This document shows positions 8,733 through 51,736 of a stretch of 64,000 nucleotides of DNA, one piece after another. Positions within the stretch are counted from its first letter, which is position 1. Each line of letters starts with the position of its first letter. The DNA comes from Candidatus Saccharimonadales bacterium. Lineage in GTDB: Bacteria; Patescibacteriota; Saccharimonadia; UBA4664; SCTI01. The notes beneath the pieces were generated by a model that was not told the DNA's origin, made no database searches, and saw nothing but the letters and a program-made list of their open reading frames with translations. The translations under genes were made by a program, and so were the position numbers. The stretch is taken from positions 7-64,006 of the forward strand of contig DATIII010000002.1 in NCBI GenBank assembly GCA_035479795.1. The letters are read 5' to 3'.

Positions 8733-9758
8733 ATGAGCGAAGCCAAAATAGTCCATTTTCCGCACCACAAACGATCCGATTCTGCTAATAATCCGGATGC
8801 GGCCGAACACGCCCGAGCTCGGATCGCGGCTTTGCCCGATCAATACGCTAGCCACGCATCACCTCGCCCGGATCTGGCACGCAAAATCCCCCCCGCCAGC
8901 CCAGCCGCCCAAGATCAGCCACTCAGCTCGGAGATACCAGGTATCGATGATCTTACCGAAATCGGCCGCCAGCTAAAGGGTGGAAATTCACAAGAAGCTC
9001 CAGAAGGCCAGCCGTCAGAAAGCCCACAGGAAACGACAACTAAAAAACGTCGTTTACCAAGCCAGGCTAAGCCCCTGATTTCCGCGGCAGTTACCTTTGT
9101 CATTATCTTTATGGTTTTTAAGGCGCCTATCTTTCTGACCCAGCTGAGTTACGCCACCCAGAAACCTCCGGTAACCGCGCCTTCCAATAACTCTACTGCC
9201 GTTGGCCCCGACCCGGTGATCGATATTGCTAAAATCAACGTCCACGCGCCAATCGCCTTTGCGCACAGCAATACCGAAAGTGATATTCAAAAAGATCTCG
9301 AAGGGGGAGTGGTGCACTATGCCAACACGGCCCTTCCCGGGACCACCGGCAACAGCGTCATCTTTGGACACTCATCAAACGACTGGTGGGAGCCGGGAAA
9401 TTACAAGTTCGTCTTTGTGTTATTAGACAAACTAGCAGTGGGTGATACCTTTACAATCAATTACAACTCAAAGCAGTATCTTTACAAAGTTGCCGAAGTG
9501 AAGGTTGTCGAGCCCACGGATCTGAGCGTACTCAACCAAACCTCTGACGCCGAAGTAACCTTGATCACCTGCACTCCACCAGGTACCAGCTGGAAACGCT
9601 TAATCGTTCGTGCCAACCAAACCACACCGGTAACCCAAAAATCGGCTCCGGTCCAGCCGGAAAAGCACGGCATTTTGCCAAGTAACGCCCCCGGCATTGT
9701 AGACAGCCTCGGCCGCCTGTGGAACAGCGTGGTTAACTTGTTCTCAACCGATAAGTAG
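8733..9758 (+). CDS. Sortase-family transpeptidase with a Pro-rich N-terminal region and a transmembrane anchor
   Basis: Catalytic region FGHSS...TLITCTP (TLxTC motif) with the conserved His. N-terminal transmembrane segment. Confidence 0.7.
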   Translation: MSEAKIVHFPHHKRSDSANNPDAAEHARARIAALPDQYASHASPRPDLARKIPPASPAAQDQPLSSEIPGIDDLTEIGRQLKGGNSQEAPEGQPSESPQETTTKKRRLPSQAKPLISAAVTFVIIFMVFKAPIFLTQLSYATQKPPVTAPSNNSTAVGPDPVIDIAKINVHAPIAFAHSNTESDIQKDLEGGVVHYANTALPGTTGNSVIFGHSSNDWWEPGNYKFVFVLLDKLAVGDTFTINYNSKQYLYKVAEVKVVEPTDLSVLNQTSDAEVTLITCTPPGTSWKRLIVRANQTTPVTQKSAPVQPEKHGILPSNAPGIVDSLGRLWNSVVNLFSTDK

Positions 9759-11150
9759 TTATTTGCGAACCGTAATGGCCCGAATCTGAGCCTCCCCTGT
9801 AGATGTCGTCGCTACAGTTAAAGCACTCTTATTATCGGTTGAACTAAAGGCCGGTAGCGCACCCGCCTTAGTCAAAACATTGGAGTAATTACCATCAAAT
9901 TCAGTCATGACAATCAAGCCGCCACGATTGAGCAGGAGGTGATAATTGTCAAACCAATTAACACCGGTAGCACCATTATTCAAGTCACTAAAAGCGTAAT
10001 TCTTATCCCTCTCGACGTCATAAGTCCCCACTGCTGAGCTTGTGGATACTAAGAGAAAACGCCCATCACTATTGAATTTGGCGGTGTCTGCCGGGAGACC
10101 CACATCTATGCGCGTAATTTGGTTACCAAAGACGTTCCCGTAAATTACCGCTCGATGAGTATCATTGTTAACGACAGCCACCTGGGCACTCCCAATGTAA
10201 GTAGCAAAATCTAAACTGTAGTGCTCGCCCGCTGGCAGGGCAGATACCAACTGCTGCTTCTTGCCACCATGGTCCATTAACCAAAGTGAGTGAGTCGGCT
10301 TCGACCCATCGACATAAACAACCCTATCACCAGCGAAGCTGTAGGACATGACATGGTCAGCCAGCACGGGCGAGGTTGACCCAGCGGCAATGTCTAAACG
10401 CCGTAATTCACCGCCAGAAAGCAGATAAATCTCACGCCAGTTACTCGGGCTGATGTTGGCGACAGCCAGATCAACCTTAAACACATCAGTCAGATTAATA
10501 GGTGTATCGCCGCCTGAGCTCAGCATTAAATAGCGCACGGCGTCGCCAATCTGGCTGCGCACCATCAAATGGGTGGCATCATCTGACCAAGCCATAAGCT
10601 GGACACTTTCTGCGGACTGAGTGTCATTGGCCGGTGCCGAAGCAAAAATTTTTGTCTGTGCCCGTGAATTTGAGTCCACCCACCAAACTCCGGCATCTGG
10701 CCCGGTAGGGACGACATAGCCGATGCGTCGGTGATCACGACTGGCCATAAATTGGCTAATGGCCGCCCGATTGACCACCTCCTTGGCCTGGATATGCTGA
10801 GGCATAAGAATGACGTACTGAGCCAGGCTAACTTGAGCTGGAATCGCCTCAATGAGTTTGTGCCAGGTGCGATAGCCGTCCTTGGACACCACAAAGTCAT
10901 GTTGACCGCCAACAAAGGTGTTGCGGTAGGGGGTTTTCTGCTTAATCAACTTACCGTCTACGGTAATCTTGGCGCCACTGGGAATAGATTCGAGGATCAC
11001 TAAGCCACGATGCTGCAGTCGGCCGGATTTAAAATCGTAGCTATAGCCGTTGCCATAGGCAATCAATAAAACCGTTCCGCCAACAATCAAGAGGGCGGCC
11101 AGTAGGTAGCTAAGGATGACAAGCAATCTTTTAGGCATTGGATTCAGCAT
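9759..11150 (-). CDS. Membrane-anchored PEGA-domain protein with a C-terminal beta-propeller-like region
   Basis: N-terminal transmembrane segment. PEGA-like ESIPSGAKITVDGKLIKQKTPY. The remainder resembles TolB-like repeats. Confidence 0.5.
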   Translation of the reverse strand: MLNPMPKRLLVILSYLLAALLIVGGTVLLIAYGNGYSYDFKSGRLQHRGLVILESIPSGAKITVDGKLIKQKTPYRNTFVGGQHDFVVSKDGYRTWHKLIEAIPAQVSLAQYVILMPQHIQAKEVVNRAAISQFMASRDHRRIGYVVPTGPDAGVWWVDSNSRAQTKIFASAPANDTQSAESVQLMAWSDDATHLMVRSQIGDAVRYLMLSSGGDTPINLTDVFKVDLAVANISPSNWREIYLLSGGELRRLDIAAGSTSPVLADHVMSYSFAGDRVVYVDGSKPTHSLWLMDHGGKKQQLVSALPAGEHYSLDFATYIGSAQVAVVNNDTHRAVIYGNVFGNQITRIDVGLPADTAKFNSDGRFLLVSTSSAVGTYDVERDKNYAFSDLNNGATGVNWFDNYHLLLNRGGLIVMTEFDGNYSNVLTKAGALPAFSSTDNKSALTVATTSTGEAQIRAITVRK

Positions 11151-11215
11151 TCAGGATACAGGATTCGGAAAAAAGCTTCCAGATCTCAGGTTCGCACCCT
11201 AAAGCCTAAATCCTA

Positions 11216-11227
11216 TATAATGCCGTT
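11216..11227 (+). promoter_or_regulatory. -10 box TATAAT placed 6 nt before the mreB ATG (leaderless-type promoter)
   Basis: TATAAT at 11216-11221, ATG at 11228. No Shine-Dalgarno sequence is possible. Confidence 0.4.
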
Positions 11228-12235
11228 ATGTTTGGAAAACGCTTAGCCCTCGATCTGGGCACCTCAAATATCCTGGTGTACGTCCCGAAGCAAGGGATCG
11301 TCGTTAATGAACCAAGTGTGGTGGCCCTGAGCACTAGCGATTCCAGCGTTATGGCCATCGGTACGGATGCCAAGGAAATGCTGGGCCGTACACCGGATAG
11401 TATTGTGGCATCTCACCCTTTAAAGGATGGTGTAATTGCGGACTATCGGATAACTCAGGCCATGATCAAGCACTTTATTGGTAAGGTTCTAGGGGGCTTT
11501 CGACTAACTCGCCCAGATGTCATGGTGACCGTGCCGGCTGGAGCCACCTCCACTGAACGACGCGCCGTGGTTGATGCCACTTTAGCCGCTGGCGCCCGGG
11601 CGGCCTATATTATTCGTGAGCCGGTGGCGGCAGCCCTAGGTGCCGGCGTCCCAATCGCTTCGGCGGCCGGCAATATGGTAGTCGACATCGGCGGAGGCAC
11701 TACCGAGATTGCCATTCTCTCTTTAGGCGGAGTGGTAGCCCAAGCCTCGGTGCGGGTGGGCGGCAATAAGCTAGATGCCGCCATTGCCGAAGGCATCCGG
11801 CGCAGCCACGGTCTGGCTATTGGGCAACAAACCGCTGAAGAAATTAAACACACCCTTGGCAGCGCCTTAATCCTCAAACAGGACGAGCACATGGAAATAC
11901 GCGGTCGCGATGTGATAGCCGGCCTGCCAAAGACCATAACGATTTCATCGAATGAAATAACCCATACCATCGCCGACGAACTGGAAAAAATTATTCTGGC
12001 CATCAAATCGGTATTAGAACAAACACCCCCCGAGCTGTCCAGTGACATCATTGATCGCGGCATGGTGCTAACCGGTGGCGGAGCGCTCCTAAAAAATATT
12101 GATAAGCTCCTTACTAACGTCACAGGCGTGCCCTGCGTCGTTGCCAAAGACGCCCAGCTCTGCGTAGCCAAGGGTGCCGGTATTGCTTTGGATAATCTCG
12201 AAGAGTATAAACGTAGTCTGGCTGGTCTTAAGTGA
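11228..12235 (+). CDS. mreB: Rod shape-determining actin homologue MreB
   Basis: N-terminus LALDLGTSNILVY and motifs DIGGGTTEIA and LTGGGALL. Confidence 0.9.
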   Translation: MFGKRLALDLGTSNILVYVPKQGIVVNEPSVVALSTSDSSVMAIGTDAKEMLGRTPDSIVASHPLKDGVIADYRITQAMIKHFIGKVLGGFRLTRPDVMVTVPAGATSTERRAVVDATLAAGARAAYIIREPVAAALGAGVPIASAAGNMVVDIGGGTTEIAILSLGGVVAQASVRVGGNKLDAAIAEGIRRSHGLAIGQQTAEEIKHTLGSALILKQDEHMEIRGRDVIAGLPKTITISSNEITHTIADELEKIILAIKSVLEQTPPELSSDIIDRGMVLTGGGALLKNIDKLLTNVTGVPCVVAKDAQLCVAKGAGIALDNLEEYKRSLAGLK

Positions 12236-20683: not shown

Positions 20684-20925
20684 GTTTTCTCCTTGTTTTT
20701 ACTCTAATGGCGCCCTGTCGCATACAGCCATTTTTTGGCGTCTACTTCACCTCACACAGTGGCACAAGCATTTAGGCTAACAAAGACCTCGTTAACGGTC
20801 AATAGTGCAATTTAACAGTTTTTGACGAAATTGACACGCAGCTTAAGAGGCTGATAGGTTGAGATAATTACAAAAATTGGTGGGTGAGTCCCAGGAAAGG
20901 TTTCCACCTATCCTGGGACTCCCAT

Positions 20926-21873
20926 TTACTGGCCCTGGGCCAAGCGCAACCGCTTCACGTTGGCGCTGGCCTCGGCGGCCTGGGTAGAGGCCACTTCAGT
21001 CTCGTCGGCCTCGGTCATCCCGACACTGGTGGTGACCACCGGCGGGCCGAGCAAACTAGCCACCACGGCGGCCGGCGCGGTCAGCACCTTGTCATCGAGA
21101 AGTCCCACTCCCTTGTTCAGGGCGCAGGCACTGGCATCGGCCAGGGCCTCCCTGGATACGACGACCTCACCGTAACCAGTTGGCTGCTTGCACTTGAACC
21201 CAACGTCATCGACCCGAATCCCGGCAATTCCACCGATTTCCCGAGCCTTGGTAATGATGCGCTTGTCGAGCAACCCGCGGATCAACTGCCGGTAGGTGAT
21301 CTTGCCGGCGTCCGTCTGGATGACCTGAACGATGCCCTCGTAGAGGTAATCGCTCCAGCTCGACATTTCCAGCTGCTTCTTGGCGACGTCGACCACCTGG
21401 AAGTGGATGACGGGTGTGACCTTAAAGGCCACGCAGTCGCGGGTAACGATCTTGAGCTCTTGGCACTCGTGCTTCTGAGGCCGCATATCGGTGGGGGGCT
21501 GCTTGTGGATAAACGGCAGCTTGAACCACTGGCCGGCGGTCCGGATCATCAGCTGCTGCCGCCGGGCCGGGTCCCAGCCGATCGGGCAAGGCAGAATGAA
21601 CGGGCCGAAGGCGCGCAAGCCATACCGATCCCAGTACCACGTCCGCAGGTGGAGCGGCATGCCGAAACGGGTCATGACGGACTCGTGGCCGTAGGGCATG
21701 CGAAAACAGCTCTTCTTCCCATCGGCATCGTCCTTGGCCTTCTTGGCCGCAATGCCGAGAATTCCGCCGGTAGTGACACTACCCCCGACAAGTGAAGGAA
21801 CAATTGTTGCGAGACTGGGCATAAGCCCCCTCCATGGGACTCGAGATTTACAGGTAAAACGTACTCCTCGCAC
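20926..21873 (-). CDS. SPFH/band-7 (stomatin/prohibitin-like) domain membrane protein with an Ala/Val-rich C-terminal tail
   Basis: F.MPYGHESVMTRFG, WFKLPFI and QELKIVTRDCVAFKVTPVIHFQVVD match the SPFH N-terminal signature. The likely start is the internal Met MPSLATIV. Confidence 0.55.
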   Translation of the reverse strand: MRGVRFTCKSRVPWRGLMPSLATIVPSLVGGSVTTGGILGIAAKKAKDDADGKKSCFRMPYGHESVMTRFGMPLHLRTWYWDRYGLRAFGPFILPCPIGWDPARRQQLMIRTAGQWFKLPFIHKQPPTDMRPQKHECQELKIVTRDCVAFKVTPVIHFQVVDVAKKQLEMSSWSDYLYEGIVQVIQTDAGKITYRQLIRGLLDKRIITKAREIGGIAGIRVDDVGFKCKQPTGYGEVVVSREALADASACALNKGVGLLDDKVLTAPAAVVASLLGPPVVTTSVGMTEADETEVASTQAAEASANVKRLRLAQGQ

Positions 21874-22393: not shown

Positions 22394-23074
22394 ATGAGAA
22401 TTCTGGTTGTCGAAGACGAGCACAAAATAGCTAATGCACTCAAGCAGGGTTTGGAACAGGAATCCTACGCTGTCGATCTGGCCTACGACGCCGATGAAGG
22501 ACTGAGCTCAGCCCTAACGGCCGAGCATGATCTAATTGTGCTCGATAGAATGCTCCCCGGCATGATCGAAGGCATTGAGATTGCCAAAGAGGTGCGGGCT
22601 AACAAGATTCATACGCCAATACTAATGCTGACTGCTAAAGATCAGATTCGCGATCGCGTGGCCGGGCTAAATGCCGGAGCTGATGATTATTTAGTGAAGC
22701 CTTTTGCTTTCGAGGAGCTGCTTGCACGCGTCAAAGCCTTGCTGCGACGGCCACAGGATAGCTTGGCCAACATCCTACAAATCCATGACCTGTCGCTCAA
22801 CACGCTGACCTACGAGGTCAAGCGCGCCGGCAAGGTAGTTGGCCTGACCAGCAAGGAATACGCCCTGTTGCACTACCTCATGCGTAATCAAAACCGAGTC
22901 TTGAGCAAAAACAGTATTATTAGCCATGTCTGGGATTTTGATGCCGACATCCTGCCTAACACCGTGGAAGTTTATATGGGCTACTTGCGTAATAAAATCG
23001 AGCGACCATTTAAAGGCCCAGCTTTAATCCACACCATGCGAGGCTTTGGCTACAAGATAGGGGTGGAGGAATGA
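22394..23074 (+). CDS. OmpR/PhoB-family two-component response regulator
   Basis: Receiver motifs (VVEDE ... D at about position 54) and a winged-helix C-terminus GFGYKI. Confidence 0.9.
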   Translation: MRILVVEDEHKIANALKQGLEQESYAVDLAYDADEGLSSALTAEHDLIVLDRMLPGMIEGIEIAKEVRANKIHTPILMLTAKDQIRDRVAGLNAGADDYLVKPFAFEELLARVKALLRRPQDSLANILQIHDLSLNTLTYEVKRAGKVVGLTSKEYALLHYLMRNQNRVLSKNSIISHVWDFDADILPNTVEVYMGYLRNKIERPFKGPALIHTMRGFGYKIGVEE

Positions 23075-24090
23075 GAGAAGTGCGTCGGTGGTGGCAAAGT
23101 TTGGACCCAGCCATTCGGCTGACAGGATCATACCTGCTCATCATTATGCTGATCAGCTTCTTTTTCAGTGTGGTGCTGTACTACATGGCGGCCGGGCAAC
23201 TTTCCGAGGGCCTGCGCCATCAGTATTTGCGCTTCGGCTGCGGACCGGGCTGCGACCCGCAGGGTCCGGTGGGCTTAATTGTCCGAGAAGAACTAGCCAT
23301 CGAAAAGGGCAGACTAATAGCCCAGCTAGCCTATTTTAATATCCTCATCCTAATAATGGCCGCCGCCTCGAGCTTGTGGTTGGCCAGGCGGACCCTCAGA
23401 CCGATCGAAGCCGCCCTAGAAGCTCAGAGCCGCTTTTCTTCGGACGCCTCTCACGAACTCCGCACACCTTTATCGGCCATGCAGGCCGAAATCGAAGTCG
23501 CCCTGCGCAATAAGAAGCTTTCGAAAGATGAGGCCATCAATGTGTTAAAAAGCAATCTGGAGGAAGTTATCAAACTGCGCGGTCTTTCTGACTCGCTACT
23601 ACGCCTGGCCCGCGAAAACGGCCTGGATTATACCGCTGTCGATTTGAAAATAGCTACAGCCGAGGCTGTCAGCCGGTTGCAAGTTTTAGCGGACAAAAAG
23701 CACATTAAAATCGTGGACCAAACAGATTCAGCAATTGTCTCCGGTGATTATATTAGCTTAGTCGATCTAATATCTATCCTGATCGACAATGCCGTCAAAT
23801 ATAGTCCTGAGAATAGTCAGATTACGATTCTTTCCGACACATCCAGCCGTTTCGCTAGTCTGACTGTCAAAGATAACGGCCCGGGCATTGGCAATACGCA
23901 CCTAACACGTATATTTGAACGATTTTACCGGGCTGACGTCTCGCGCACGGGTAGTGGCGGATACGGATTAGGGCTCTCTATAGCCAAAAAGCTGGCTGAT
24001 CTACATCAAGGTAAAATTGAGGTTAAGAGCCAGGCAGGCAAAGGCTCAGAATTTACCTTAAAAATACCTGTTCTAAAGCAGGGGGCTTAA
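23071..24090 (+). CDS. Sensor histidine kinase (HisKA + HATPase_c), 2 transmembrane segments
   Basis: H-box SHELRTPLSAM and G-boxes DNGPGI / GYGLGLSI. ATG overlaps the response-regulator stop (ATGA). Confidence 0.85.
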   Translation: MREVRRWWQSLDPAIRLTGSYLLIIMLISFFFSVVLYYMAAGQLSEGLRHQYLRFGCGPGCDPQGPVGLIVREELAIEKGRLIAQLAYFNILILIMAAASSLWLARRTLRPIEAALEAQSRFSSDASHELRTPLSAMQAEIEVALRNKKLSKDEAINVLKSNLEEVIKLRGLSDSLLRLARENGLDYTAVDLKIATAEAVSRLQVLADKKHIKIVDQTDSAIVSGDYISLVDLISILIDNAVKYSPENSQITILSDTSSRFASLTVKDNGPGIGNTHLTRIFERFYRADVSRTGSGGYGLGLSIAKKLADLHQGKIEVKSQAGKGSEFTLKIPVLKQGA

Positions 24091-25559
24091 TACTCCTCAA
24101 AAAATAGAGTTAGGCCAAGCTTTGTAGCCTCCGCCTCTAGCTTTTCCTTACCGACTGAGTCAATGGTTGATTGGTCAACTCGTACGATCACCTCAATATG
24201 CGGGTATTCCCGAGCAATAGTAGTCGCTAGCTCTCGACCGGTGTTGAAAGGTAGCGACACCGATTCGATGTCTTCCACGCCAACGCCACCCAATATCTGG
24301 GCCTCCACATAATATGGATCACGCCCTCTCTCACCCTCATACTCGCGTCGTAGAAGCTCGGCCTCTACCGCGTCATCAACGGTGAGAATATTTTCCGCCC
24401 CAGACAGCAGTGGAGCAGAACCGTCCCTAAGCGAGTCCCCATACGAAAATGTTGTCCTTGTCTCGACAACCTCCGGTTTGATCGTGACCGCGCATTCACC
24501 GTAACGATTGTCGCCCAAGCCGACTGCCTTAGAATCCGGCCCCGCGGCTAACGCACCATAAACTATTCGGCTTTCAAGCACGTCGTCTTTTTCCCGACGA
24601 CCAGTCCGACTCTCCATATTTTGGCGTCGAGTTGAATCAGGTGTGCCACCAGAGGTTTCAATTTCACCGTAACCGAGCAGTCGATGACTATCAAATAAAA
24701 CCCGTGCCAAGACTTCTGGCTTGGTATGAACCACCCCAGCTCGCTCGGCGGCTTGGGCCTCTTCGTGTACCTTTTCGGCAGTGCCTTGGTCAAGATGGAG
24801 TCGAGCATAGACGGCGGCCAGAGCGGCTGGACTTTTTTCTTCGGCAGCCGCCACACGCTCCTGAGCCGGGACATGGTTCTCCTGAATGCTTTTCAATATC
24901 TGCTCTAGTTCGTGGCTTGAAATCAACTCCAGAGCCATTGCAGCCTCCTCAGGCCGCGCCACATACTTGTGCTCAAAAAACTTCCAGGCCTCGACAGCTA
25001 ACAGGTCACGTTCCGAGGATTCAGGTAGGTGCCTGAGCAGGGGAATAATCATATCGGCTTCGGCCTTGGCAGCTTCTCGAGTTGCGGTTCGTGTATCCTG
25101 GTCATGCCGGAACCGAAAGGGGTCAGTAATTTCGGCTAACGCCTGGATACGCTCCTGAGCAAGTCCTACATTCAGCCCAGCCAGGTCAGCTTGGTTTAGT
25201 GGAATAGGCTCACGGATGACGCGCTCGGATTTACCAATTTTTGAGTATGAATTATATAGGCCTTTCACCTCTGAACGCCGAAACTCTCGGGACAATCTAG
25301 AAACTACCTCAGCCACCTGGCCTGAATCGGCTGGCTGTTCACGCTCTAAGGCACTAGTAACCCCCTCAAAGCAATCTTTGAGCTTTTCTGGGTCTCGCAA
25401 ATCCTTAGCTTGCTCGACCCTGCGAACATCATGGCTGGTAATTTCCGACCGGGCAACCTTTAAAGCCTCTTCCAGACCGGGGGTAGCACTTGTTTCCGAA
25501 GCCTTGGAATGAAATTCTTCTGCTTCTGGTGTGGCGACTTCGCTCATAAGCGCTAGCAT
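24087..25559 (-). CDS. Large orphan protein (490 aa): Ala/Glu-rich helical N-terminal half plus a globular C-terminal domain
   Basis: Long ORF with good coding statistics, convergent with the kinase. No recognisable motifs; not a match to any family I can name. Confidence 0.5.
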   Translation of the reverse strand: MLALMSEVATPEAEEFHSKASETSATPGLEEALKVARSEITSHDVRRVEQAKDLRDPEKLKDCFEGVTSALEREQPADSGQVAEVVSRLSREFRRSEVKGLYNSYSKIGKSERVIREPIPLNQADLAGLNVGLAQERIQALAEITDPFRFRHDQDTRTATREAAKAEADMIIPLLRHLPESSERDLLAVEAWKFFEHKYVARPEEAAMALELISSHELEQILKSIQENHVPAQERVAAAEEKSPAALAAVYARLHLDQGTAEKVHEEAQAAERAGVVHTKPEVLARVLFDSHRLLGYGEIETSGGTPDSTRRQNMESRTGRREKDDVLESRIVYGALAAGPDSKAVGLGDNRYGECAVTIKPEVVETRTTFSYGDSLRDGSAPLLSGAENILTVDDAVEAELLRREYEGERGRDPYYVEAQILGGVGVEDIESVSLPFNTGRELATTIAREYPHIEVIVRVDQSTIDSVGKEKLEAEATKLGLTLFFEEY

Positions 25560-25684
25560 AGACTATAGACCTGTAAACTGCTATAGTGGTCGGGTTCAAT
25601 CCAGGCATTGCCACTTCTCCATACATTGCGTATCACGCCATCGCTCGGAATATACTTGTGCCAAAAAAGTGCATTCCTCGCTCT

Positions 25685-25760
25685 GGCCCCATCGTCTAGA
25701 GGCCTAGGACGCCGGGTTCTCAGTCCGGTAACAGGGGTTCGAATCCCCTTGGGGCTACCA
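25685..25760 (+). tRNA. tRNA-Glu (anticodon CUC), CCA encoded
   Basis: Cloverleaf: acceptor GGCCCCA/UGGGGCU, anticodon stem CCGGG/UCCGG with loop UUCUCAG, T-loop GGTTCGAATCC, 3' ACCA. Confidence 0.85.
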
Positions 25761-25766
25761 AAAAGT

Positions 25767-25793
25767 GTCCGACTTTCATGTCGGGCATTTTTT
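25767..25793 (+). terminator. Intrinsic terminator after tRNA-Glu
   Basis: 7-bp stem GTCCGAC/GTCGGGC (one G-U pair) followed by ATTTTTT. Confidence 0.6.
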
Positions 25794-25926
25794 AGTAAGC
25801 TTTTCTCGGTTTTATATGATATTAGTGCTTTTTGAGAGGCCAACATCCTTGTTAACCTCTCAAGTGGATCACACCAGAGTCCGGCCCATGATGGTGTCGA
25901 GCGATGCCGCCATGACCACACGCTCC

Positions 25927-26073
25927 TTATGGTCGGCATAGTGGGCGATCTCCGTGTACCTCATAGACACGACGAATCGTATCGAACATCTTGTTAAAAG
26001 CAATCTGGTCTTCAGGGAGGAGCTCCATGAAGCCGCTCAGGATGCGAGGCGTAACTCGCTGGGGATCCGACAT
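25927..26073 (-). pseudogene. hisS: N-terminal remnant (48 codons) of a histidyl-tRNA synthetase-like gene
   Basis: Translation MSDPQRVTPRILSGFMELLPEDQIAFNKMFDTIRRVYEVHGDRPLCRP* matches the HisRS N-terminal pattern (..DFLPEE.....FDTI..VFE.HGF.PLETP). A stop codon comes where motif 1 should continue, and no continuation exists in other frames. Confidence 0.35.
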
Positions 26074-39828: not shown

Positions 39829-40617
39829 ATGAGAGCTCTCTGGACTGGGTCCCTTAGCTTTGGCTTAATCAACATCCCCGTACGGCTATATTCGGGTAGT
39901 GAGTCACGGGGTGGTATTGAGCTGACCATGCTTCATAAAAAGGACCTTTCACCAATCCGTTATGCCCGAATTTGCCGCGCCGACGGCAAGGAAATTCCGT
40001 TCGACCAGATTGTAAAGGGCTACGAGTACCAGGAAGGTGACTACGTGGTGCTAACCGATGACGATCTGAAAAAGGCCAATGCCCGGCGGACCAAGAGCAT
40101 TGATATCGAAGAGTTTGTGCACGAGGATGAGATTGATGTGCGCTACTACGAAAAGCCATACTATCTAGAACCTGATAAAAATGCGGCCAAACCTTACGCT
40201 CTGCTACGAGAGGCTTTGAATAAAAGCGGACGCGTGGCGATTGCCAAGTTTGTGCTGCGCAATAAGGAGCATTTAGCCGCCGTTAAACCGGTTGGCAAGG
40301 TATTGGTTCTGGAGCAAATGCGCTTTCCATCAGATCTGCGAGCGCCATCCAAGCTAGATATCCCGGAAGCCTCAGCCGCCACCAAAAAGGAGATTGATAT
40401 GGCCCTGGCGCTGATTGATCAACTGAGTGCGCCATTTATACCTGAAGATTTTCACGACACCTATACCGAGGAACTCGAAGCACTGATTGAAGCCAAAGCT
40501 AAAGGCAAAAAGCCCAAAGCCGCTGGACCAGCACCCAAGGCCACACCGAGTAAAGACCTAATGAGCATGCTCAAGGCCAGCCTAGAGAAGGAGCGCGACA
40601 AAGCCGCGTCCAAATAA
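39829..40617 (+). CDS. ku: Non-homologous end-joining protein Ku
   Basis: N-terminus MRALWTGSLSFGLINIPVRLYSG and the Ku core. Lys-rich C-terminus. Confidence 0.9.
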   Translation: MRALWTGSLSFGLINIPVRLYSGSESRGGIELTMLHKKDLSPIRYARICRADGKEIPFDQIVKGYEYQEGDYVVLTDDDLKKANARRTKSIDIEEFVHEDEIDVRYYEKPYYLEPDKNAAKPYALLREALNKSGRVAIAKFVLRNKEHLAAVKPVGKVLVLEQMRFPSDLRAPSKLDIPEASAATKKEIDMALALIDQLSAPFIPEDFHDTYTEELEALIEAKAKGKKPKAAGPAPKATPSKDLMSMLKASLEKERDKAASK

Positions 40618-43062
40618 ATGGCCCTGGCCGAATATAAAAAGAAGCGGACATTCAAGAGTAGTCCTGAACCGGCTGGCAAATTACATAAGCCGGAAAAGCA
40701 CTTGCGATTTGTGGTCCAAAAACACCACGCCAGCCAGCTCCATTATGATTTTCGACTAGAGCTCGATGGCGTCTTAAAGAGCTGGGCGGTGCCCAAGGGC
40801 CCCTCTTTAAATCCAGATGACAAGCGACTAGCTATGATGGTCGAAGATCACCCCTATGAGTACCGGGATTTCGAAGGGGTTATTCCGAAAGGCAATTATG
40901 GCGCCGGCAAGGTGATCGTATGGGACGAGGGTACTTATGAAGATTACGAGCAATCAAAAGATCTAAAAACTCAGATTAAAAATCTTCGCGCGGGACTAAA
41001 GAAAGGCGACTTTAAGTTTGTGCTGCATGGCCAAAAGCTGAATGGGGCCTACGTGTTGGCTAAGATGCAGGGTCGGGGTGAAAATAATTGGCTACTGATC
41101 AAGAAAAAGGACGATTTTGCCACCGCTGAGGATGTGACCAAACAAGGCGAATCTGTAAAATCCGGCCTGGACGTAGAAGCGGTCGGTGATGTTCCGGGCA
41201 AAAAATGGCTCAAGACGCCGAAGTTAAATCTGAAAGACGCTCCTAAGGCCACCCAACCAGGCAAGCTAGAACCGATGCTGGCGACATTATCAAAGGAAGC
41301 ATTTGACGGTCCGGACTGGCTGTATGAGATCAAGTGGGACGGCTACCGAATATTGGCGCATCTGGGAGACGGTGAGGTGAAACTACTTAGCCGCAATGGC
41401 AAAGACTACACCGAAGTGTTCGCGCCGATTGCAACGGAGCTATCAAGCTTGAAATTAAATGCCATCTTGGACGGCGAGATCGTGGTCTTGGACAAGGATG
41501 GCAAAAGTGACTTTGGGGCCCTCCAGGATTACCAAAAAACGGGTGCGGGCCATCTGGTATACGAGGTTTTTGACGCTCCTTTTGCAGATGGTCACGACCT
41601 TCGCGAACTCTCATTGACTAAGCGAAAGGAGATCGTCGCCGAAGCCATAGAGGATCTGGAAAACGTCCGCTATAGCGACCACATTACCGGAGGCGGCAAG
41701 GCCTTCTTCGCCCAGGCCGAAAAGCTGGGCTTGGAAGGCATAATGGCTAAACAAAATGACAGCCAATACTTAAATGGCAAACGGGGACAAAGTTGGCTGA
41801 AGATTAAGACCCACCAACGGCAGGAGGTGGTGGTTGGCGGCTGGACAGAGCCGCGCGGCGGTCGCAAAGGTATGGGCGCCCTTATTGTTGGCGTTTATGA
41901 GGAGAAGAGTCTACGCTACGTCGGTAATGTTGGTGGCGGATTTACTGAAAAGAGCATTGATGACATTTTGGTAAAATTGAAGCTCTTGGAGCGCAGGACA
42001 TCACCCTTTAGCGGGCCAGTCAAAAATGATACTGCCATCCATTGGGTGAAGCCCGATCTGTTAGCCGAGGTAAAGTTTGCCGAATGGACAGGGGACGGCC
42101 ATCTGCGGCAGCCGATATTCTTGGGACTGCGTGAAGATAAGGAGGCCCAGAAGGTGCAAAAGGAAGAAGCCATCGAACCAGGTGGGAAGTTTACACCGAC
42201 TCATCGCGATAAGGTATTTTGGCCCAAGGAAAAATACACCAAGGGTGACGTGATTGATTATTACGATGCCGTATCTGCCACCATCCTGCCGCACCTGGTT
42301 TATCGGCCGCAGTCAATGAATCGTCATCCGAACGGCATTAAGGGGGCTAGCTTCTTTCAGAAGGATGTCGAAAAACACCCTGATTGGGTCAAAACCAAAC
42401 CGATTTACTCAGAGTCAAACGATGGGGATATTAACTGGCTGATCTGTAACGACCGCGACACACTGTTATACATGGCCAATTTGGGCTGTATTGAGCTCAA
42501 CCCCTGGCACTCGCGCACCGCTAGCTTGGATAAGCCAGATTACTGTTTGATCGACCTTGATGCCAAGACCACCAAATTTGAAGTCGTTGTCGAAGTGGCC
42601 AAAGCGGCTAAGAAGCTACTAGATGAGATTAGCGCCGATTGCTTTGTAAAAACTTCTGGAAAAACTGGCATGCACATATTGATACCGCTAGGTGCTAAAT
42701 ATTCCTATGAACAATCCCGGCAATTTGCACAATTAATTGTTGGCAAATTGAATGAAAGATTGCCGAAGATAACCAGCGTGGAGCGCAATCCAGATAAACG
42801 TCGCGGTAAGATCTATCTGGATTACCTACAAAACCGCAAAGGCCAGACGATGGCAGCCGCCTACTGCCTGCGACCCGTCGAAGGCGCCCCCGTTAGCGCC
42901 CCTCTTAAATGGAGCGAAGTTAAGAAGGGCCTTGATCCCCGAAAATTCAACATAAAAACTATGCCAGCTCGTATCAAGAAAGTCGGTGATCTTCATAATG
43001 GCCTTACTGGTCACAGAGGCATTGATATGATGAAATGCCTCAAAAATCTCGAAAAGTCTTAA
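40618..43062 (+). CDS. ligD: Multidomain ATP-dependent DNA ligase LigD (3'-phosphoesterase, ligase and polymerase/primase domains)
   Basis: PE domain HYDFRLELDG...WAVPKGPS. Ligase KxDG as EIKWDGYR. C-terminal LigD polymerase domain. 814 aa. Immediately follows ku. Confidence 0.9.
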   Translation: MALAEYKKKRTFKSSPEPAGKLHKPEKHLRFVVQKHHASQLHYDFRLELDGVLKSWAVPKGPSLNPDDKRLAMMVEDHPYEYRDFEGVIPKGNYGAGKVIVWDEGTYEDYEQSKDLKTQIKNLRAGLKKGDFKFVLHGQKLNGAYVLAKMQGRGENNWLLIKKKDDFATAEDVTKQGESVKSGLDVEAVGDVPGKKWLKTPKLNLKDAPKATQPGKLEPMLATLSKEAFDGPDWLYEIKWDGYRILAHLGDGEVKLLSRNGKDYTEVFAPIATELSSLKLNAILDGEIVVLDKDGKSDFGALQDYQKTGAGHLVYEVFDAPFADGHDLRELSLTKRKEIVAEAIEDLENVRYSDHITGGGKAFFAQAEKLGLEGIMAKQNDSQYLNGKRGQSWLKIKTHQRQEVVVGGWTEPRGGRKGMGALIVGVYEEKSLRYVGNVGGGFTEKSIDDILVKLKLLERRTSPFSGPVKNDTAIHWVKPDLLAEVKFAEWTGDGHLRQPIFLGLREDKEAQKVQKEEAIEPGGKFTPTHRDKVFWPKEKYTKGDVIDYYDAVSATILPHLVYRPQSMNRHPNGIKGASFFQKDVEKHPDWVKTKPIYSESNDGDINWLICNDRDTLLYMANLGCIELNPWHSRTASLDKPDYCLIDLDAKTTKFEVVVEVAKAAKKLLDEISADCFVKTSGKTGMHILIPLGAKYSYEQSRQFAQLIVGKLNERLPKITSVERNPDKRRGKIYLDYLQNRKGQTMAAAYCLRPVEGAPVSAPLKWSEVKKGLDPRKFNIKTMPARIKKVGDLHNGLTGHRGIDMMKCLKNLEKS

Positions 43063-48000: not shown

Positions 48001-49032
48001 GTGGAAACCGATACACTCACAGCCGGGAAGGCAATTGATTATCGAAAAACCGCCGAGGCTATCCTCAGCGTCCTCAAGCAGGAACGCGATCGCGAGATAG
48101 TAGCCCGGCGTTTTGGGCTGGGAATTGACCGCCGCCACACTCTCGAGAAGATTGGTCAAGCCTTCGGTATTACCAGAGAACGAGTCCGTCAGATTGAAAA
48201 ATCGGCGACCGCCAAACTGATGGCTAGCCAGCACCAGCATATTAAGGACGTGGATGCCATTCTTAGTCAGCACCTGGCTCGAGTCGGGCACATTGCCCCC
48301 TTACGCGAGGTCACCGAGGCCATTGGAGCCAAAACTCCAGCCGAACGAGCCTATGTGACCTTCCTAGCCACTCTGGCGCCGTCGATCGAGGTAATTGATG
48401 AAAATGATTACTTCCATGCAGCCATCGCCAGTCTTCCCCAGTTTGACCGTATGAAGCTGTCCATCGCCACTAGTAAAATTAAGGCCCAGCTCGACAAACA
48501 TGGTCAGCCGGAAAGCCTGGCCCGGCTACATAAACTAACAACTCCTGATCTGCCCCGAGAATCAGTCGAAAACATTGCCAAGATTTCGAAGACGCTGGCT
48601 GAGCTTGATGGGAAGTGGGGACTGGTTCATTGGCCTCAAGTTAATCCTCGGTCAATTCGCGACAAGACCTTCTTGATTTTAAACAAGCATAATCAGCCCA
48701 TGCACTTCACCGACATTGCCGGCCGCATTACTGATCTGGGACAGCGCCGGCGCGAAGTAACTGTTCAGGCGGTTCACAACGAACTAATCAAAGACCCTCG
48801 GTTTGTACTGGTAGGGCGGGGGATTTATGCCCTCAGCGACTGGGGCTACACTCCCGGAACTGTGGCCGACATTATCACCGAAGTCCTGAAGCAGCAGTCA
48901 CCATTACATAAAGATGAGATCGTAAAACGAGTGCTGCAGAAGCGCCAGGTGAAAACCACCACCATCGTCTTAAACTTACAAGAAAAAGACCAGTTTGTGC
49001 GGGTGGCGAAGGCTACCTACGGTTTGAGGTAA
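48001..49032 (+). CDS. DNA-binding protein with an N-terminal sigma-70 region-4-like HTH and a C-terminal HARE-HTH / RpoE-delta-like winged helix
   Basis: EIVARRFGL...TLEKIGQAFGITRERVRQIEKSA matches sigma70 region 4. C-terminus FVLVGRGIYALSDWGY matches the HARE-HTH signature. Confidence 0.6.
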   Translation: METDTLTAGKAIDYRKTAEAILSVLKQERDREIVARRFGLGIDRRHTLEKIGQAFGITRERVRQIEKSATAKLMASQHQHIKDVDAILSQHLARVGHIAPLREVTEAIGAKTPAERAYVTFLATLAPSIEVIDENDYFHAAIASLPQFDRMKLSIATSKIKAQLDKHGQPESLARLHKLTTPDLPRESVENIAKISKTLAELDGKWGLVHWPQVNPRSIRDKTFLILNKHNQPMHFTDIAGRITDLGQRRREVTVQAVHNELIKDPRFVLVGRGIYALSDWGYTPGTVADIITEVLKQQSPLHKDEIVKRVLQKRQVKTTTIVLNLQEKDQFVRVAKATYGLR

Positions 49033-49033
49033 C

Positions 49034-51736
49034 ATGGGCGTACTCGGAGGGATTGTTTCAGCCATTCTGCAAATCCTCGGCATCATGCTGTTTAAACTTT
49101 ACGGCTGGGTGGTTATTGTCGCTATCTTGGGATACCTAATCTGGCAGAATCGCCGCCGCGAGCAGTGGGTCACCCAGACCGATCATATCCTGCTGCTAGT
49201 AGAAGTCCCTAAAGATAATGAAAAAAAGGAACTGTCGGCCGAGCAAATGTTTGCCAGCCTTCACGGCATCTTACGGCCGAAGTCTGAGCTGCGCCGCGAG
49301 GGTTCGCTCCAGGAGCACATCAGCTTGGAACTGGCGGCCCGTGACAATCAAATCCAGTTTTATGTTTGGACACCCAAGCACCTGAAGGATTTTGTGGAAG
49401 GCCAGATTTACGCTCAGTATCCATCGGTGCGTATCCGAGAGGGGGTGGAAGACTACACCACGATCGAAAAGGGGGCGCGGGAAGTTTACACGACCGAGCT
49501 ATCTCTCACTAAGGACGACGTATTGCCGATCAAAACCTTCCAGACCTTTGAAGTCGACCCGTTGGCCGGTATTACCGCCGTCTTGGCCAAGCTCGAGGAG
49601 ACAGGCGAGGAAATGTGGATTCAAATCCTGGCGCGACCAATTGACGATTCCTGGCAAGATGATGGGCATAAGTACATTGAAGACATTAAAAATGGCCGGA
49701 CGCCCCATTTTCGCCGAGCCTTGCTTGATCAACTGATTGCCATACCTCTACATGTCGTAGCTAATTTTGTAACAGCCTTGGCATCGCCGCCGGAGTCGGC
49801 GGACAAGAAGGGCGGGGAAGTTAAACTCTCAACCGGACAGCAAGCCGTCATAAAGGCGGTGGAGAGCAAGGTAGCCAAGCTGGGTTATCAGGTTAAAATT
49901 CGGATTACTTATCTTGGGAGTGACGCCGATCGAGCTAAACAACGGGTTCAAGCCATTGTGGGCGGTTTTAAGCAGTTTAATACCACCAGTCTCAATGGCT
50001 TTACAACTAGGCACAGTCTGGTAGGGGACGCCGGGCTAGCAGAATATCAGGCCCGGCTATTCATGGGCGAAGGGTCGACCTTAAATATTGAAGAGCTGGC
50101 CAGTGTTTACCACCTACCGCACAAGAGCGTCGAAACTCCCAATATGGTATGGACCACCGTTAAAACCTCCGAGCCGCCGTCTAGTCTACCAGCCGAAGGG
50201 GCGGTCGCGCCCGAAGACGTCAGCTTGTTTGGTCAAACCAACTTCCGCGGGCATCAAATTAAGTTCGGCATTAAGCGTCGCGACCGTGACCGTCATATGT
50301 ACATCATCGGCCAAACCGGTACGGGTAAGTCGAAGCTATTAAACCTCCTGACCCTGTCTGACATCTATCACGACATCGGATTGGCGATTGTCGACCCGCA
50401 CGGCGACTTCGCCACAGATATGCTGCAGTATATACCCGAGCATCGGCTAAAAGATGTGATCTACTTTAACCCGACCGACCGCGACTTTCCGATCGCCTTT
50501 AACCCCCTTGAGGTCTACGATCCGGCCTTTAAAAACGATATTAGTTCGGAAATGATTGGCGTCTTAAAGCGGATGTTCGACTCCTGGGGGCCCAGATTGG
50601 AGTACATTCTGCGATACACCATCTTGGCGCTGCTCGATTATCCGGATTCGACCATGCTAGGGATTACCCGCATGCTGACCGAAAAGGAATTCCGTAAAAA
50701 GGTGATCCGCGAGATCAAAGATCCGGTGGTGAAGAATTTCTGGGTTAACGAATTTGCTAGTTGGAATGATAAATTTGCCAACGAAGCAGTGGCCCCGGTG
50801 CTGAACAAGGTCGGTGCTTTTACCGCTAACCCGCTGATCCGTAATATCATTGGCCAGCCCAAGAGCAAGTTGGATCTACGGGGCATAATGGACGAAGGCA
50901 AGATCCTAATTGTTAACCTCAGCCGCGGCCAGATTGGCGAGGATAATGCCAGTATCCTGGGCGCTCTAATGGTCACTAAGATTCAGCTAGCCGCCATGAG
51001 CCGAGCTAACATCCCGCTCGAGCAGCGCCGGCCATTCTATCTATATGTCGACGAGTTCCAAAACTTTGCTACCGATTCGTTCGCGACCATTCTGTCCGAG
51101 GCCCGCAAATACCAACTAAATCTGACCGTCGCTAACCAGTATATTGCCCAGATGCCCGAACAGGTGAGAGACGCCGTGTTTGGCAACGTTGGGACCATGG
51201 TAAGCTTCCGTGTGGGCGCGGGCGACGGGCAAGTGATTGGTAAATACTTTACTCCAGCCTTCGAGCCTGAAGATCTCATAAAGTTAAATAATCAGCATAT
51301 TGTACTCGACATGACTATTGACGGCGAAAAGAACATCCCGTTCTCGGCTACCACTCTGCGCATGCCGGAGCCAGAGCGTAACTACACACCCGAAATGATC
51401 GCTTACACACGCAGCCACTACGCCAGTGCCAGGGGCGATGTAGAGCGCGAAATCTCGGAGTGGACACTTGGTCAAAGCGCTGCCGAAAAGGCCACTGATG
51501 AGCAAGCCACTCCCGAAGAACAAAAACCGAACACGTTTTTAGGCAATCTCAAAAATCCCAATCCGCCAGCAGCCAGCCACTCAAGCCACGGAAATTCTAA
51601 TCGAAACCGTAATCGAAATCGGAAATCAACAGGTGGCCAAACCAGAGAAAGCCAGCACAGAGGCCAACAGGAGTCTCGATCTGGTGAACGGGAAAGGGCG
51701 TCTGTTGGCGCTCAAAACAGCCAAAAACAGGATTAA
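49034..51736 (+). CDS. Membrane-anchored P-loop ATPase of the FtsK/HerA-TraD/VirD4 (T4SS coupling-protein-like, AAA_10/DUF87) class with an Arg/Asn/Gln-rich tail
   Basis: N-terminal transmembrane helices. Walker A IIGQTGTGKSK followed by IVDPHGDF. Walker B-like LYVDEFQNF. 900 aa. Confidence 0.55.
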   Translation: MGVLGGIVSAILQILGIMLFKLYGWVVIVAILGYLIWQNRRREQWVTQTDHILLLVEVPKDNEKKELSAEQMFASLHGILRPKSELRREGSLQEHISLELAARDNQIQFYVWTPKHLKDFVEGQIYAQYPSVRIREGVEDYTTIEKGAREVYTTELSLTKDDVLPIKTFQTFEVDPLAGITAVLAKLEETGEEMWIQILARPIDDSWQDDGHKYIEDIKNGRTPHFRRALLDQLIAIPLHVVANFVTALASPPESADKKGGEVKLSTGQQAVIKAVESKVAKLGYQVKIRITYLGSDADRAKQRVQAIVGGFKQFNTTSLNGFTTRHSLVGDAGLAEYQARLFMGEGSTLNIEELASVYHLPHKSVETPNMVWTTVKTSEPPSSLPAEGAVAPEDVSLFGQTNFRGHQIKFGIKRRDRDRHMYIIGQTGTGKSKLLNLLTLSDIYHDIGLAIVDPHGDFATDMLQYIPEHRLKDVIYFNPTDRDFPIAFNPLEVYDPAFKNDISSEMIGVLKRMFDSWGPRLEYILRYTILALLDYPDSTMLGITRMLTEKEFRKKVIREIKDPVVKNFWVNEFASWNDKFANEAVAPVLNKVGAFTANPLIRNIIGQPKSKLDLRGIMDEGKILIVNLSRGQIGEDNASILGALMVTKIQLAAMSRANIPLEQRRPFYLYVDEFQNFATDSFATILSEARKYQLNLTVANQYIAQMPEQVRDAVFGNVGTMVSFRVGAGDGQVIGKYFTPAFEPEDLIKLNNQHIVLDMTIDGEKNIPFSATTLRMPEPERNYTPEMIAYTRSHYASARGDVEREISEWTLGQSAAEKATDEQATPEEQKPNTFLGNLKNPNPPAASHSSHGNSNRNRNRNRKSTGGQTRESQHRGQQESRSGERERASVGAQNSQKQD

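Follow-up and report, generated by a model that had tools for sequence, protein, structure and literature searches.

A divergent SopF-family (DUF3626) protein, probably an ADP-ribosyltransferase, encoded in a Candidatus Saccharimonadales genome

We have identified a gene for a 490-amino-acid (aa) protein of the DUF3626/SopF family in 64,000 nucleotides (nt) of contig DATIII010000002.1 from a Candidatus Saccharimonadales bacterium (the whole stretch is hereafter the window). The protein is a divergent member of the family by profile homology, fold and catalytic residues, falling short only of the Pfam threshold for single sequences. Its homology, fold and the residues of its nicotinamide adenine dinucleotide (NAD+) site indicate that it is probably an NAD+-dependent ADP-ribosyltransferase (ART) of the SopF type, and we refer to it as the ART protein. 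Thus, it adds to a known enzyme family, and is not a new kind of protein or system.

Homology, predicted fold and NAD-site residues

An earlier note, made from the DNA letters and their translations, had described the protein as an orphan with no assignable motifs. A word-indexed homology search with the full-length sequence, the C-terminal domain or alignment A2 (a narrow alignment of the ~500-aa subfamily) returned the ART protein itself as the sole match. Taken alone, this search would have wrongly confirmed the orphan status. An exhaustive phmmer (HMMER) search of 1.84 billion cluster representatives revealed 154 relatives at E<=1e-3, ten of them at E<1e-30. The ten closest (E 1e-35 to 1e-47; 424-666 aa) align over residues ~42-484, and the single named member of their clusters carries the NCBI label 'DUF3626 domain-containing protein [Candidatus Saccharibacteria bacterium]'. 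The remaining matches cover residues ~265-460 only, and often lie inside, or at the C terminus of, proteins of 900-2700 aa. The view that no motif could be assigned did not survive either. The ART protein matches Pfam DUF3626 (PF12294) over residues 325-379 only (E=1e-4, 21.9 bits, where the gathering score is 27 bits) and no other Pfam domain. DUF3626 is also the sole Pfam family found in all ten closest relatives, six of which exceed the gathering score, and it is matched by 33 of 40 long relatives (best E=2.8e-29). The motifs quoted in the earlier note proved to be the most conserved columns of the family.

DUF3626 is the domain of SopF, an effector of the Salmonella type III secretion system 1 (T3SS1) (PMC6682159). 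SopF carries an 'I-Y-E' triad and acts as an ADP-ribosyltransferase; ARF GTPases activate it, and its target is Gln124 of ATP6V0C, a V-ATPase subunit (PMC10333799). A profile of alignment A1, which comprises 79 family sequences including the window protein, matches both SopF crystal structures (7dn8_C, E=3.1e-13; 7dn9_A, E=3.5e-11). Three motifs align across this distance: family R-P-I-Y-G with SopF RPIY224AAL, family Y-G...LKPEV..RTTF..GDS with SopF SAY240GKSFFEL...TFSPFD, and family Y-x-E-A-Q-I-x-G-G-V...D-I with SopF YIE325AHIHGDV...DI. The chain-to-protein numbering offset of SopF is 69, verified against the mutagenesis primers of PMC11937434. In the ART protein itself the core motifs read R-[PI]-[IV]-Y334-G, Y353-G...KPEV..R368-TTF.YG-D375-S376 and Y417-V-E419-A-Q421-ILGG...D430-I, so that Tyr334, Tyr353 and Glu419 stand at the positions of SopF Tyr224, Tyr240 and Glu325.

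These three positions are the ones that matter in SopF, where most activity was lost on mutation of the nicotinamide site (Y224A or Y240A) or the N-ribose site (E325A) (PMC11937434). Comparison of 7DN8 with the NAD-bound crystal 7DN9 shows a change of Glu to Asp in the latter, at exactly Glu325. We infer that the 'I' of the SopF triad most likely has its counterpart in Val333, an aliphatic residue taking the place of the usual His or Arg in both proteins. The V333-Y334, Y353 and E419 columns are invariant or nearly so in A1 and A2, and all other invariant or nearly invariant columns are kept in the ART protein (R312, E316, R368, D375, S376, Y417, Q421, G424/G425 and D430). A catalytically dead pseudo-enzyme, in which the ART fold serves as a binding module only, would fit a protein whose activity is read from its sequence and whose triad begins with Val rather than His or Arg, as in the unusual I-Y-E of SopF. 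However, the residues that SopF requires and every family-invariant column are kept despite ~30% overall identity, and we give this explanation very little credence.

AlphaFold gave a poor model from the single sequence, with a predicted local distance difference test (pLDDT) score of 43. With alignment A1 the model reached a pLDDT of 85.2 and a predicted template modelling (pTM) score of 0.84, with disorder confined to residues 1-40. On this model the protein is predicted to have an ART fold whose nearest solved structure is SopF. The Ala/Glu-rich helical half and C-terminal globular domain described in the earlier note are both borne out. From about residue 115 onwards the helical domain is conserved in the ~500-aa Saccharibacterial relatives and in C-terminal modules of 840-1300-aa relatives, and it is possibly a target- or activator-binding or regulatory module. 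Among predicted viral structures, nine phage or giant-virus proteins match the ART model at E<=1e-3, including a Nodularia phage 'DUF3626 domain-containing protein' and a siphovirus 'minor capsid protein'. By hydropathy and charge, the ART protein lacks signal peptides and transmembrane segments along its whole length, and we take it to be a soluble, very acidic protein made in the cytoplasm.

Several results weigh against the assignment to SopF. The ART protein alone stays below the DUF3626 gathering score, and the narrow A2 profile by itself gives no match to SopF. A Foldseek search with the predicted structure, a check that the earlier note had proposed, gave weak matches in the PDB (E~0.04-0.2), among which OspC3, CopC and DarT are listed and SopF is absent. 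The identity of the protein as an ART rests on computation, and its target is not readable from sequence. Searches of NCBIfam, PADLOC and the PDB with the single ART sequence gave nothing meaningful, and the catalytic half, compared by tblastn with annotated phages and plasmids, had no match.

Set beside SopF of Salmonella enterica (PF12294; 7DN8/7DN9), the ART protein shares the family profile, the NAD-site residues, a helical region N-terminal to the core and the lack of an adjacent immunity gene. It differs in being only ~15% identical, in having a different and longer N-terminal helical domain, and in carrying an extra C-terminal alpha/beta sub-domain. The biological settings also differ, as SopF is a T3SS1 effector of an animal pathogen. 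ARF GTPases are eukaryotic, and neither they nor ATP6V0C exist in the bacterial host of a Saccharibacterium. DarT (of DarTG) and the ADP-riboxanases OspC3 and CopC have no sequence-level match to the ART protein. DarT modifies single-stranded DNA and OspC3 converts Arg to ADP-riboxanated Arg, whereas nothing in the ART protein points to either chemistry. In the literature searched, we found no paper describing SopF-like ARTs in Saccharibacteria.

The gene, its surroundings and its inheritance

The reading frame was found on the minus strand with the length and bounds given in the earlier note (Table 1). NCBI lists the product as 'hypothetical protein VLF21_00700' on a 156-kb contig, with 486 aa and a start at Met5. 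As that note also stated, the open reading frame (ORF) is convergent with a sensor kinase (HisKA; 23071..24090), the two stop codons overlapping by 4 bases in TTAA at 24087-24090. With this kinase downstream, and with the transfer RNA (tRNA) gene and a hisS remnant upstream, the gene is monocistronic and has no operon partner. The surrounding genes are of ordinary housekeeping or signalling kinds. On one side they include those for glutamyl-tRNA synthetase (GluRS), a DUF3048 protein, an RlpA-like protein, FKBP, a LysM transglycosylase and an OmpR-type response regulator with its histidine kinase. On the far side lie a PAS-containing histidine kinase with a receiver, a pseudouridine synthase, a D-Ala-D-Ala carboxypeptidase and Der. 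An ORF of 128 aa at 25553..25939 (-) was rejected as spurious, since it runs antisense through tRNA-Glu.

Table 1. Positions of the ART gene, its parts and associated features (window positions unless a related locus is named)
Feature	Position	Strand	Remark
ART ORF	24087..25559	-	Complete, 490 aa plus stop; SopF-like (DUF3626) ADP-ribosyltransferase, probable
Alternative start, Met5	25545-25547	-	Yields the 486-aa NCBI product
Residues 1-40	25440..25559	-	Acidic N terminus rich in Ala/Glu/Ser/Thr, predicted disordered (pLDDT <50); length and sequence vary among relatives
Residues 41-270	24750..25439	-	Helical domain rich in Ala/Glu/Leu/Arg; beta-hairpin at 103-118
Residues 271-437	24249..24749	-	Predicted ADP-ribosyltransferase catalytic core
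Residues 438-490	24090..24248	-	Small beta-alpha-beta-alpha-beta sub-domain
Tyr334 codon	24558..24560	-	SopF Tyr224 equivalent, nicotinamide site
Tyr353 codon	24501..24503	-	SopF Tyr240 equivalent, nicotinamide site
Glu419 codon	24303..24305	-	SopF Glu325 equivalent, catalytic N-ribose-binding glutamate
tRNA-Glu(CTC)	25685..25760	+	Divergent from the ART ORF, 125 nt from its start codon
Terminator-like hairpin	25769-25784		3' of tRNA-Glu(CTC)
Truncated hisS remnant	25930..26073	-	48 codons of the HisRS N terminus, MSDPQRVTPRILSGFMELLPEDQIAFNKMFDTIRRVYEVHGDRPLCRP, then a stop codon
Sigma70_r4 and HARE-HTH protein	48001-49032		Precedes the 900-aa ATPase
T4SS coupling-protein-like membrane ATPase	49034-51736		900 aa; matches to DUF87, TrwB_AAD_bind and TraG-D_C (T4SS, type IV secretion system)
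tRNA near ART gene	L096 9806-9882		
tRNA near ART gene	L003 6-82		
tRNA near ART gene	L005 4343-4418		
tRNA near ART gene	L008 9258-9332		
tRNAs near ART gene	L095 9496-9711, 11613-11702		
T4SS cluster	L095 374-6956		3-6 kb upstream of the ART homologue
T4SS cluster	L096 1236-3852		3-6 kb upstream of the ART homologue

The tRNA gene and decayed hisS that the earlier note placed at the 5' end of the gene are both there. The remnant has its best PDB match in residues 14-49 of the HisRS structure 3net_A (E=0.005), and no full-length hisS is present within the window. An intact hisS would span tRNA-Glu and reach into the ART gene, and the remnant therefore implies an old rearrangement or duplication at this site. 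A scan with Rfam for a T-box or other RNA beside the remnant gave the tRNA alone. As far as shown, tRNA-Glu(CTC) is context and not part of the function of the ART protein.

Proximity to tRNA genes extends beyond the window. In Patescibacteria, a tRNA lies within 500 nt of the ART gene at 6 of 12 ART-family loci, compared with 11 of 185 (5.9%) other genes at the same loci (Fisher p=1.1e-4), and its identity varies by locus (Glu-CTC, Arg-GCG, Glu-TTC, Lys-TTT, Gln-TTG and Ser). At the locus we term L095, the ART gene sits inside a tRNA-Ser array (9496-11702), with Ser-TGA and Ser-GCT upstream and Ser-CGA downstream. The last 28 nt of the flanking GCT and CGA tRNAs are identical, which may come from the likeness of isoacceptors or may mark an att-like pair. 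The tRNA-adjacent ART loci showed neither an integrase nor an att duplication. The adjacency may mark an insertion hot spot or something functional.

The earlier note had pointed to tRNA loci as classic insertion points, and the scenario that follows from it makes the gene the cargo of a recently integrated, tRNA-targeted mobile island. The tRNA lying just upstream, the rearrangement evident in the truncated hisS, the family-wide tRNA excess and the L095 array all lend themselves to it. The family excess and the hisS rearrangement thus give the original instinct about the tRNA flank some basis. At this locus, however, the expected traces are missing. Across the 64 kb, the 3' end of tRNA-Glu has no second copy and there are no flanking direct repeats; the insert would be one gene; and no integrase-type gene occurs among those adjacent to it. 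The composition of the gene is ordinary, with a GC content of 0.525 against a window mean of 0.527, a tetranucleotide distance at the 81st percentile, GC content at third codon positions (GC3) and codon score ~1 standard deviation low, and overall values within ~1.2 standard deviations of window genes. A partly syntenic gene order in another genome also opposes recent arrival. At L093, GluRS (44% identical to that of the window), a DUF3048 protein (40%) and a kinase/receiver pair are followed by an ART gene (33%), which has diverged about as much as the flanking housekeeping genes (40-44%). Taken together, these results make recent integration very improbable.

L093 belongs to a distant Saccharibacterium, and its microsynteny with the window is partial. 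It is one of several related loci in genome records, all from metagenome-assembled genomes of Saccharibacteria and other Patescibacteria, found by a scan with alignment A2 that used one narrow pattern and samples part of the family. Among the loci of the ~500-aa relatives, L098 and L100 have LytR, PrmC, a small ORF and ART in common, and L099 and L101 share ART, FtsK, S6, SSB, S18 and EF-P. L095 and L096 share a T4SS cluster made up of a VirB4/TraG-like ATPase gene, a TraC-like gene, PrgI and a tandem set of five or six pilin genes, and in addition HSP20, tRNA-Ser genes and ART. Between these last two, HSP20 is 81% and the pilins 43-56% identical, and ART only 35%. At L099 the ART gene (337-2001) is split into two consecutive ORFs, one of 281 aa (matching residues 89-206 of the ART protein) and then a catalytic half of 264 aa, which is either a frameshifted pseudogene or an assembly error. 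Four syntenic pairs in different lineages (window/L093, L095/L096, L098/L100 and L099/L101) indicate long vertical residence. No ART gene follows the nearest orthologues that could be detected of the window's response regulator-histidine kinase pair (58% and 42% identity). When metagenomes were scanned with the neighbouring kinase, no close relative of this genome turned up; the best matches were 43% identical and had that pair alone in common. Thus, we conclude that the ART gene is sparse, long-resident and chromosomal, occurring at several positions in several Saccharibacterial lineages and diverging quickly. It is not a housekeeping gene of universal conservation, nor was it brought in recently as cargo of an island, and its homology is to an effector family rather than to a housekeeping one.

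Two other parts of the window deserve mention in their own right. Positions 20884-21873 are locally GC-rich (0.615; GC3 0.775) with long ORFs on both strands, and the 315-aa minus-strand ORF there has a weak Band_7/SPFH match (E=8e-4) and is compositionally the most deviant gene nearby. At 39829-43062, adjacent ORFs of 262 and 814 aa have N termini that by eye resemble a Ku/LigD pair (non-homologous end joining).

Use of the domain across the family and possible roles

Beyond the ~500-aa subfamily, the DUF3626-type domain is found in large composite proteins. Among 40 long relatives, co-occurring domains include Phage_Mu_F and ADPrib_exo_Tox (five proteins each), together with Phage_min_cap2, ART-PolyVal, eCIS_core, Zeta_toxin, Gln_amidase and DUF3990, and some giant family proteins bear the domain beside further enzymatic domains. 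We take such architectures to be those of phage MuF-type polymorphic toxins and 'polyvalent' proteins, the latter being injected effector arrays. The ART protein has the same domain as these 900-2700-aa proteins but is a stand-alone protein of 490 aa with no recognisable trafficking or phage-structural domain.

Partner genes accompany the domain at some of the wider family's loci. At L008 (9543-11568), a 271-aa DUF3626 protein is convergent with an adjoining ADP-ribosylglycohydrolase (ARH; PF03747, E=3e-63), and ARHs are the classic reversing or immunity partners of ARTs. Two loci from Patescibacteria of the Shapirobacteria (L003 200-3234 and L005 1297-4319) encode ~910-aa proteins that end in the helical-plus-ART module and have no Pfam domain besides this C-terminal DUF3626-like module. 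Each is followed, within about 10 nt, by a conserved ORF of 92-95 aa; the two small ORFs are 49% identical to one another (consensus MNFKE..GVQ.VEPLAVL.GG..G..FIAR) and match nothing in Pfam or PHROG. We regard each large protein and its small ORF as a candidate toxin/immunity pair of Patescibacteria. The toxin-like architectures, the ARH neighbour and the small ORF favour the view that the wider family carries out genuine ADP-ribosylation and takes part in conflict between organisms.

The window gene has no such partner. Unlike polymorphic toxin/immunity loci, it is followed by the convergent histidine kinase and not by an immunity ORF, and a small downstream partner occurs in L003 and L005 only; otherwise no small ORF is conserved across the relatives' loci. 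The L008 ARH (by tblastn), the L003/L005 small ORF and the downstream ORFs of L004 and L007 have no homologues in the window. Neither a macrodomain nor an ARH gene adjoins the ART gene, no explicit macrodomain search of the whole window having been made.

With these contexts in mind, we tentatively suggest, with somewhat less than even confidence, that the ART protein is no housekeeping enzyme but an effector or toxin that the Saccharibacterium directs at a different cell, with its bacterial host as the most plausible target. We favour this role because the sole characterised family member, SopF, is an effector, because the wider family is deployed in toxin-like architectures, because the ART gene evolves fast, and because it lies 3-6 kb from a T4SS cluster in one lineage pair (L095/L096). 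The effector half of the earlier proposal of a 'candidate novel effector' thus gains support from the SopF family and its toxin-like relatives. Its novelty does not stand, given that fold, family and catalytic residues are known.

Mechanistically, the core would bind NAD+, cleave off nicotinamide and pass ADP-ribose to a specific macromolecular target, which, or an activator, would be recognised by the conserved part of the helical domain (residues ~115-270) together with the alpha/beta tail at the C terminus. For an effector, doing without an immunity partner could mean that the target is absent from the producer, or that activity needs a host factor. The latter arrangement has precedents, as OspC3 and CopC depend on calmodulin and, like SopF with ARF GTPases, are inactive before meeting their host factor. 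The most obvious delivery route would be the Patescibacterial T4SS, which in the one system tested, a cultivated Saccharibacterium, is essential for epibiotic growth and for which no substrate or effector is known (PMC12102498). In a more specific form of the proposal, the ~500-aa subfamily would be a Saccharibacteria-specific, fast-evolving T4SS substrate that is injected into the host actinobacterium and activated there by a host factor, and hence needs no immunity gene. We regard this specific form as rather unlikely.

A number of findings run counter to an exported effector. The protein has no known secretion signal. The sole T4SS-like gene of the window, among 20 Pfam-scanned proteins, is 24 kb from the ART gene, and at L095 and L096 the ART gene stands outside the T4SS operon. 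In addition, most relatives are found among housekeeping genes and are apparently vertically inherited, a pattern that an endogenous function fits equally. As a separate observation, an 824-aa ATPase ~4 kb upstream of the L008 DUF3626 protein is 35% identical to the window's T4SS-like product.

An endogenous role would make the protein a lineage-specific regulator that modifies one of the Saccharibacterium's own proteins, reversibly or irreversibly, as DraT modifies nitrogenase, perhaps tied to the neighbouring two-component systems. A monocistronic chromosomal gene with ordinary composition in housekeeping surroundings suits this role, as do the four syntenic pairs and the kinase/receiver pair near ART in both the window and L093, and modification of an intended target would need no immunity gene. 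The distribution is nevertheless very sparse (ten close cluster representatives in 1.84 billion), and the gene is missing downstream of the nearest response regulator-histidine kinase orthologues, has no ADP-ribosylhydrolase in the window by the ARH query and diverges fast compared with its neighbours. The split copy at L099 suggests that it is dispensable there, and the toxin-like architectures of the wider family likewise fit an endogenous regulator poorly. On balance, we consider an endogenous regulator doubtful.

The earlier note had alternatively suggested an anti-phage protein, a suggestion that found no direct support. It would correspond to a single-gene abortive-infection ART (DarT/CmdT-like), held off by its N-terminal helical domain and freed when a phage infects, with DNA, RNA or the translation machinery as its target of ADP-ribosylation. 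Consistent with this, the relative at L089-L092 has restriction-modification genes 6-8 kb away, the L008 domain is paired with an ARH as in toxin-antitoxin ART systems, the frequency of the domain in phage polyvalent proteins makes it part of phage-host conflict, and the model is structurally similar to DarT. Against it, the PADLOC-DB defence models gave 0 families at E<=10 with the ART protein, and an antitoxin-type neighbour is absent in the window and in all ~500-aa relatives. Most contexts are housekeeping rather than defence islands, and the sequence link is to the protein-modifying ART SopF and not to DarT. We therefore think abortive infection improbable, and retain the effector role as our tentative preference.

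Meaning for Saccharibacteria and the SopF family

The lifestyle of Saccharibacteria and other Patescibacteria is one of attachment to host bacteria. A rapidly diverging, effector-type ART in several Saccharibacterial lineages, near a T4SS in two of them, is a concrete candidate effector to test. The SopF/DUF3626 family, characterised so far only in an animal pathogen with a eukaryotic activator, is here extended to Saccharibacteria, whose partners are bacteria, and this raises the question of what replaces ARF and V-ATPase. If the injected-effector reading is true, the ART protein would be the first effector to be identified in these epibionts, and its chemistry the first enzymatic means known for them to manipulate or kill the bacteria that host them. 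If the proteins of its own cell are modified instead, the outcome would be a routine improvement of annotation, with 'DUF3626/SopF-like ADP-ribosyltransferase' replacing 'hypothetical protein'. Our result thus offers a useful annotation upgrade together with a testable lead on how Patescibacteria interact with their hosts.

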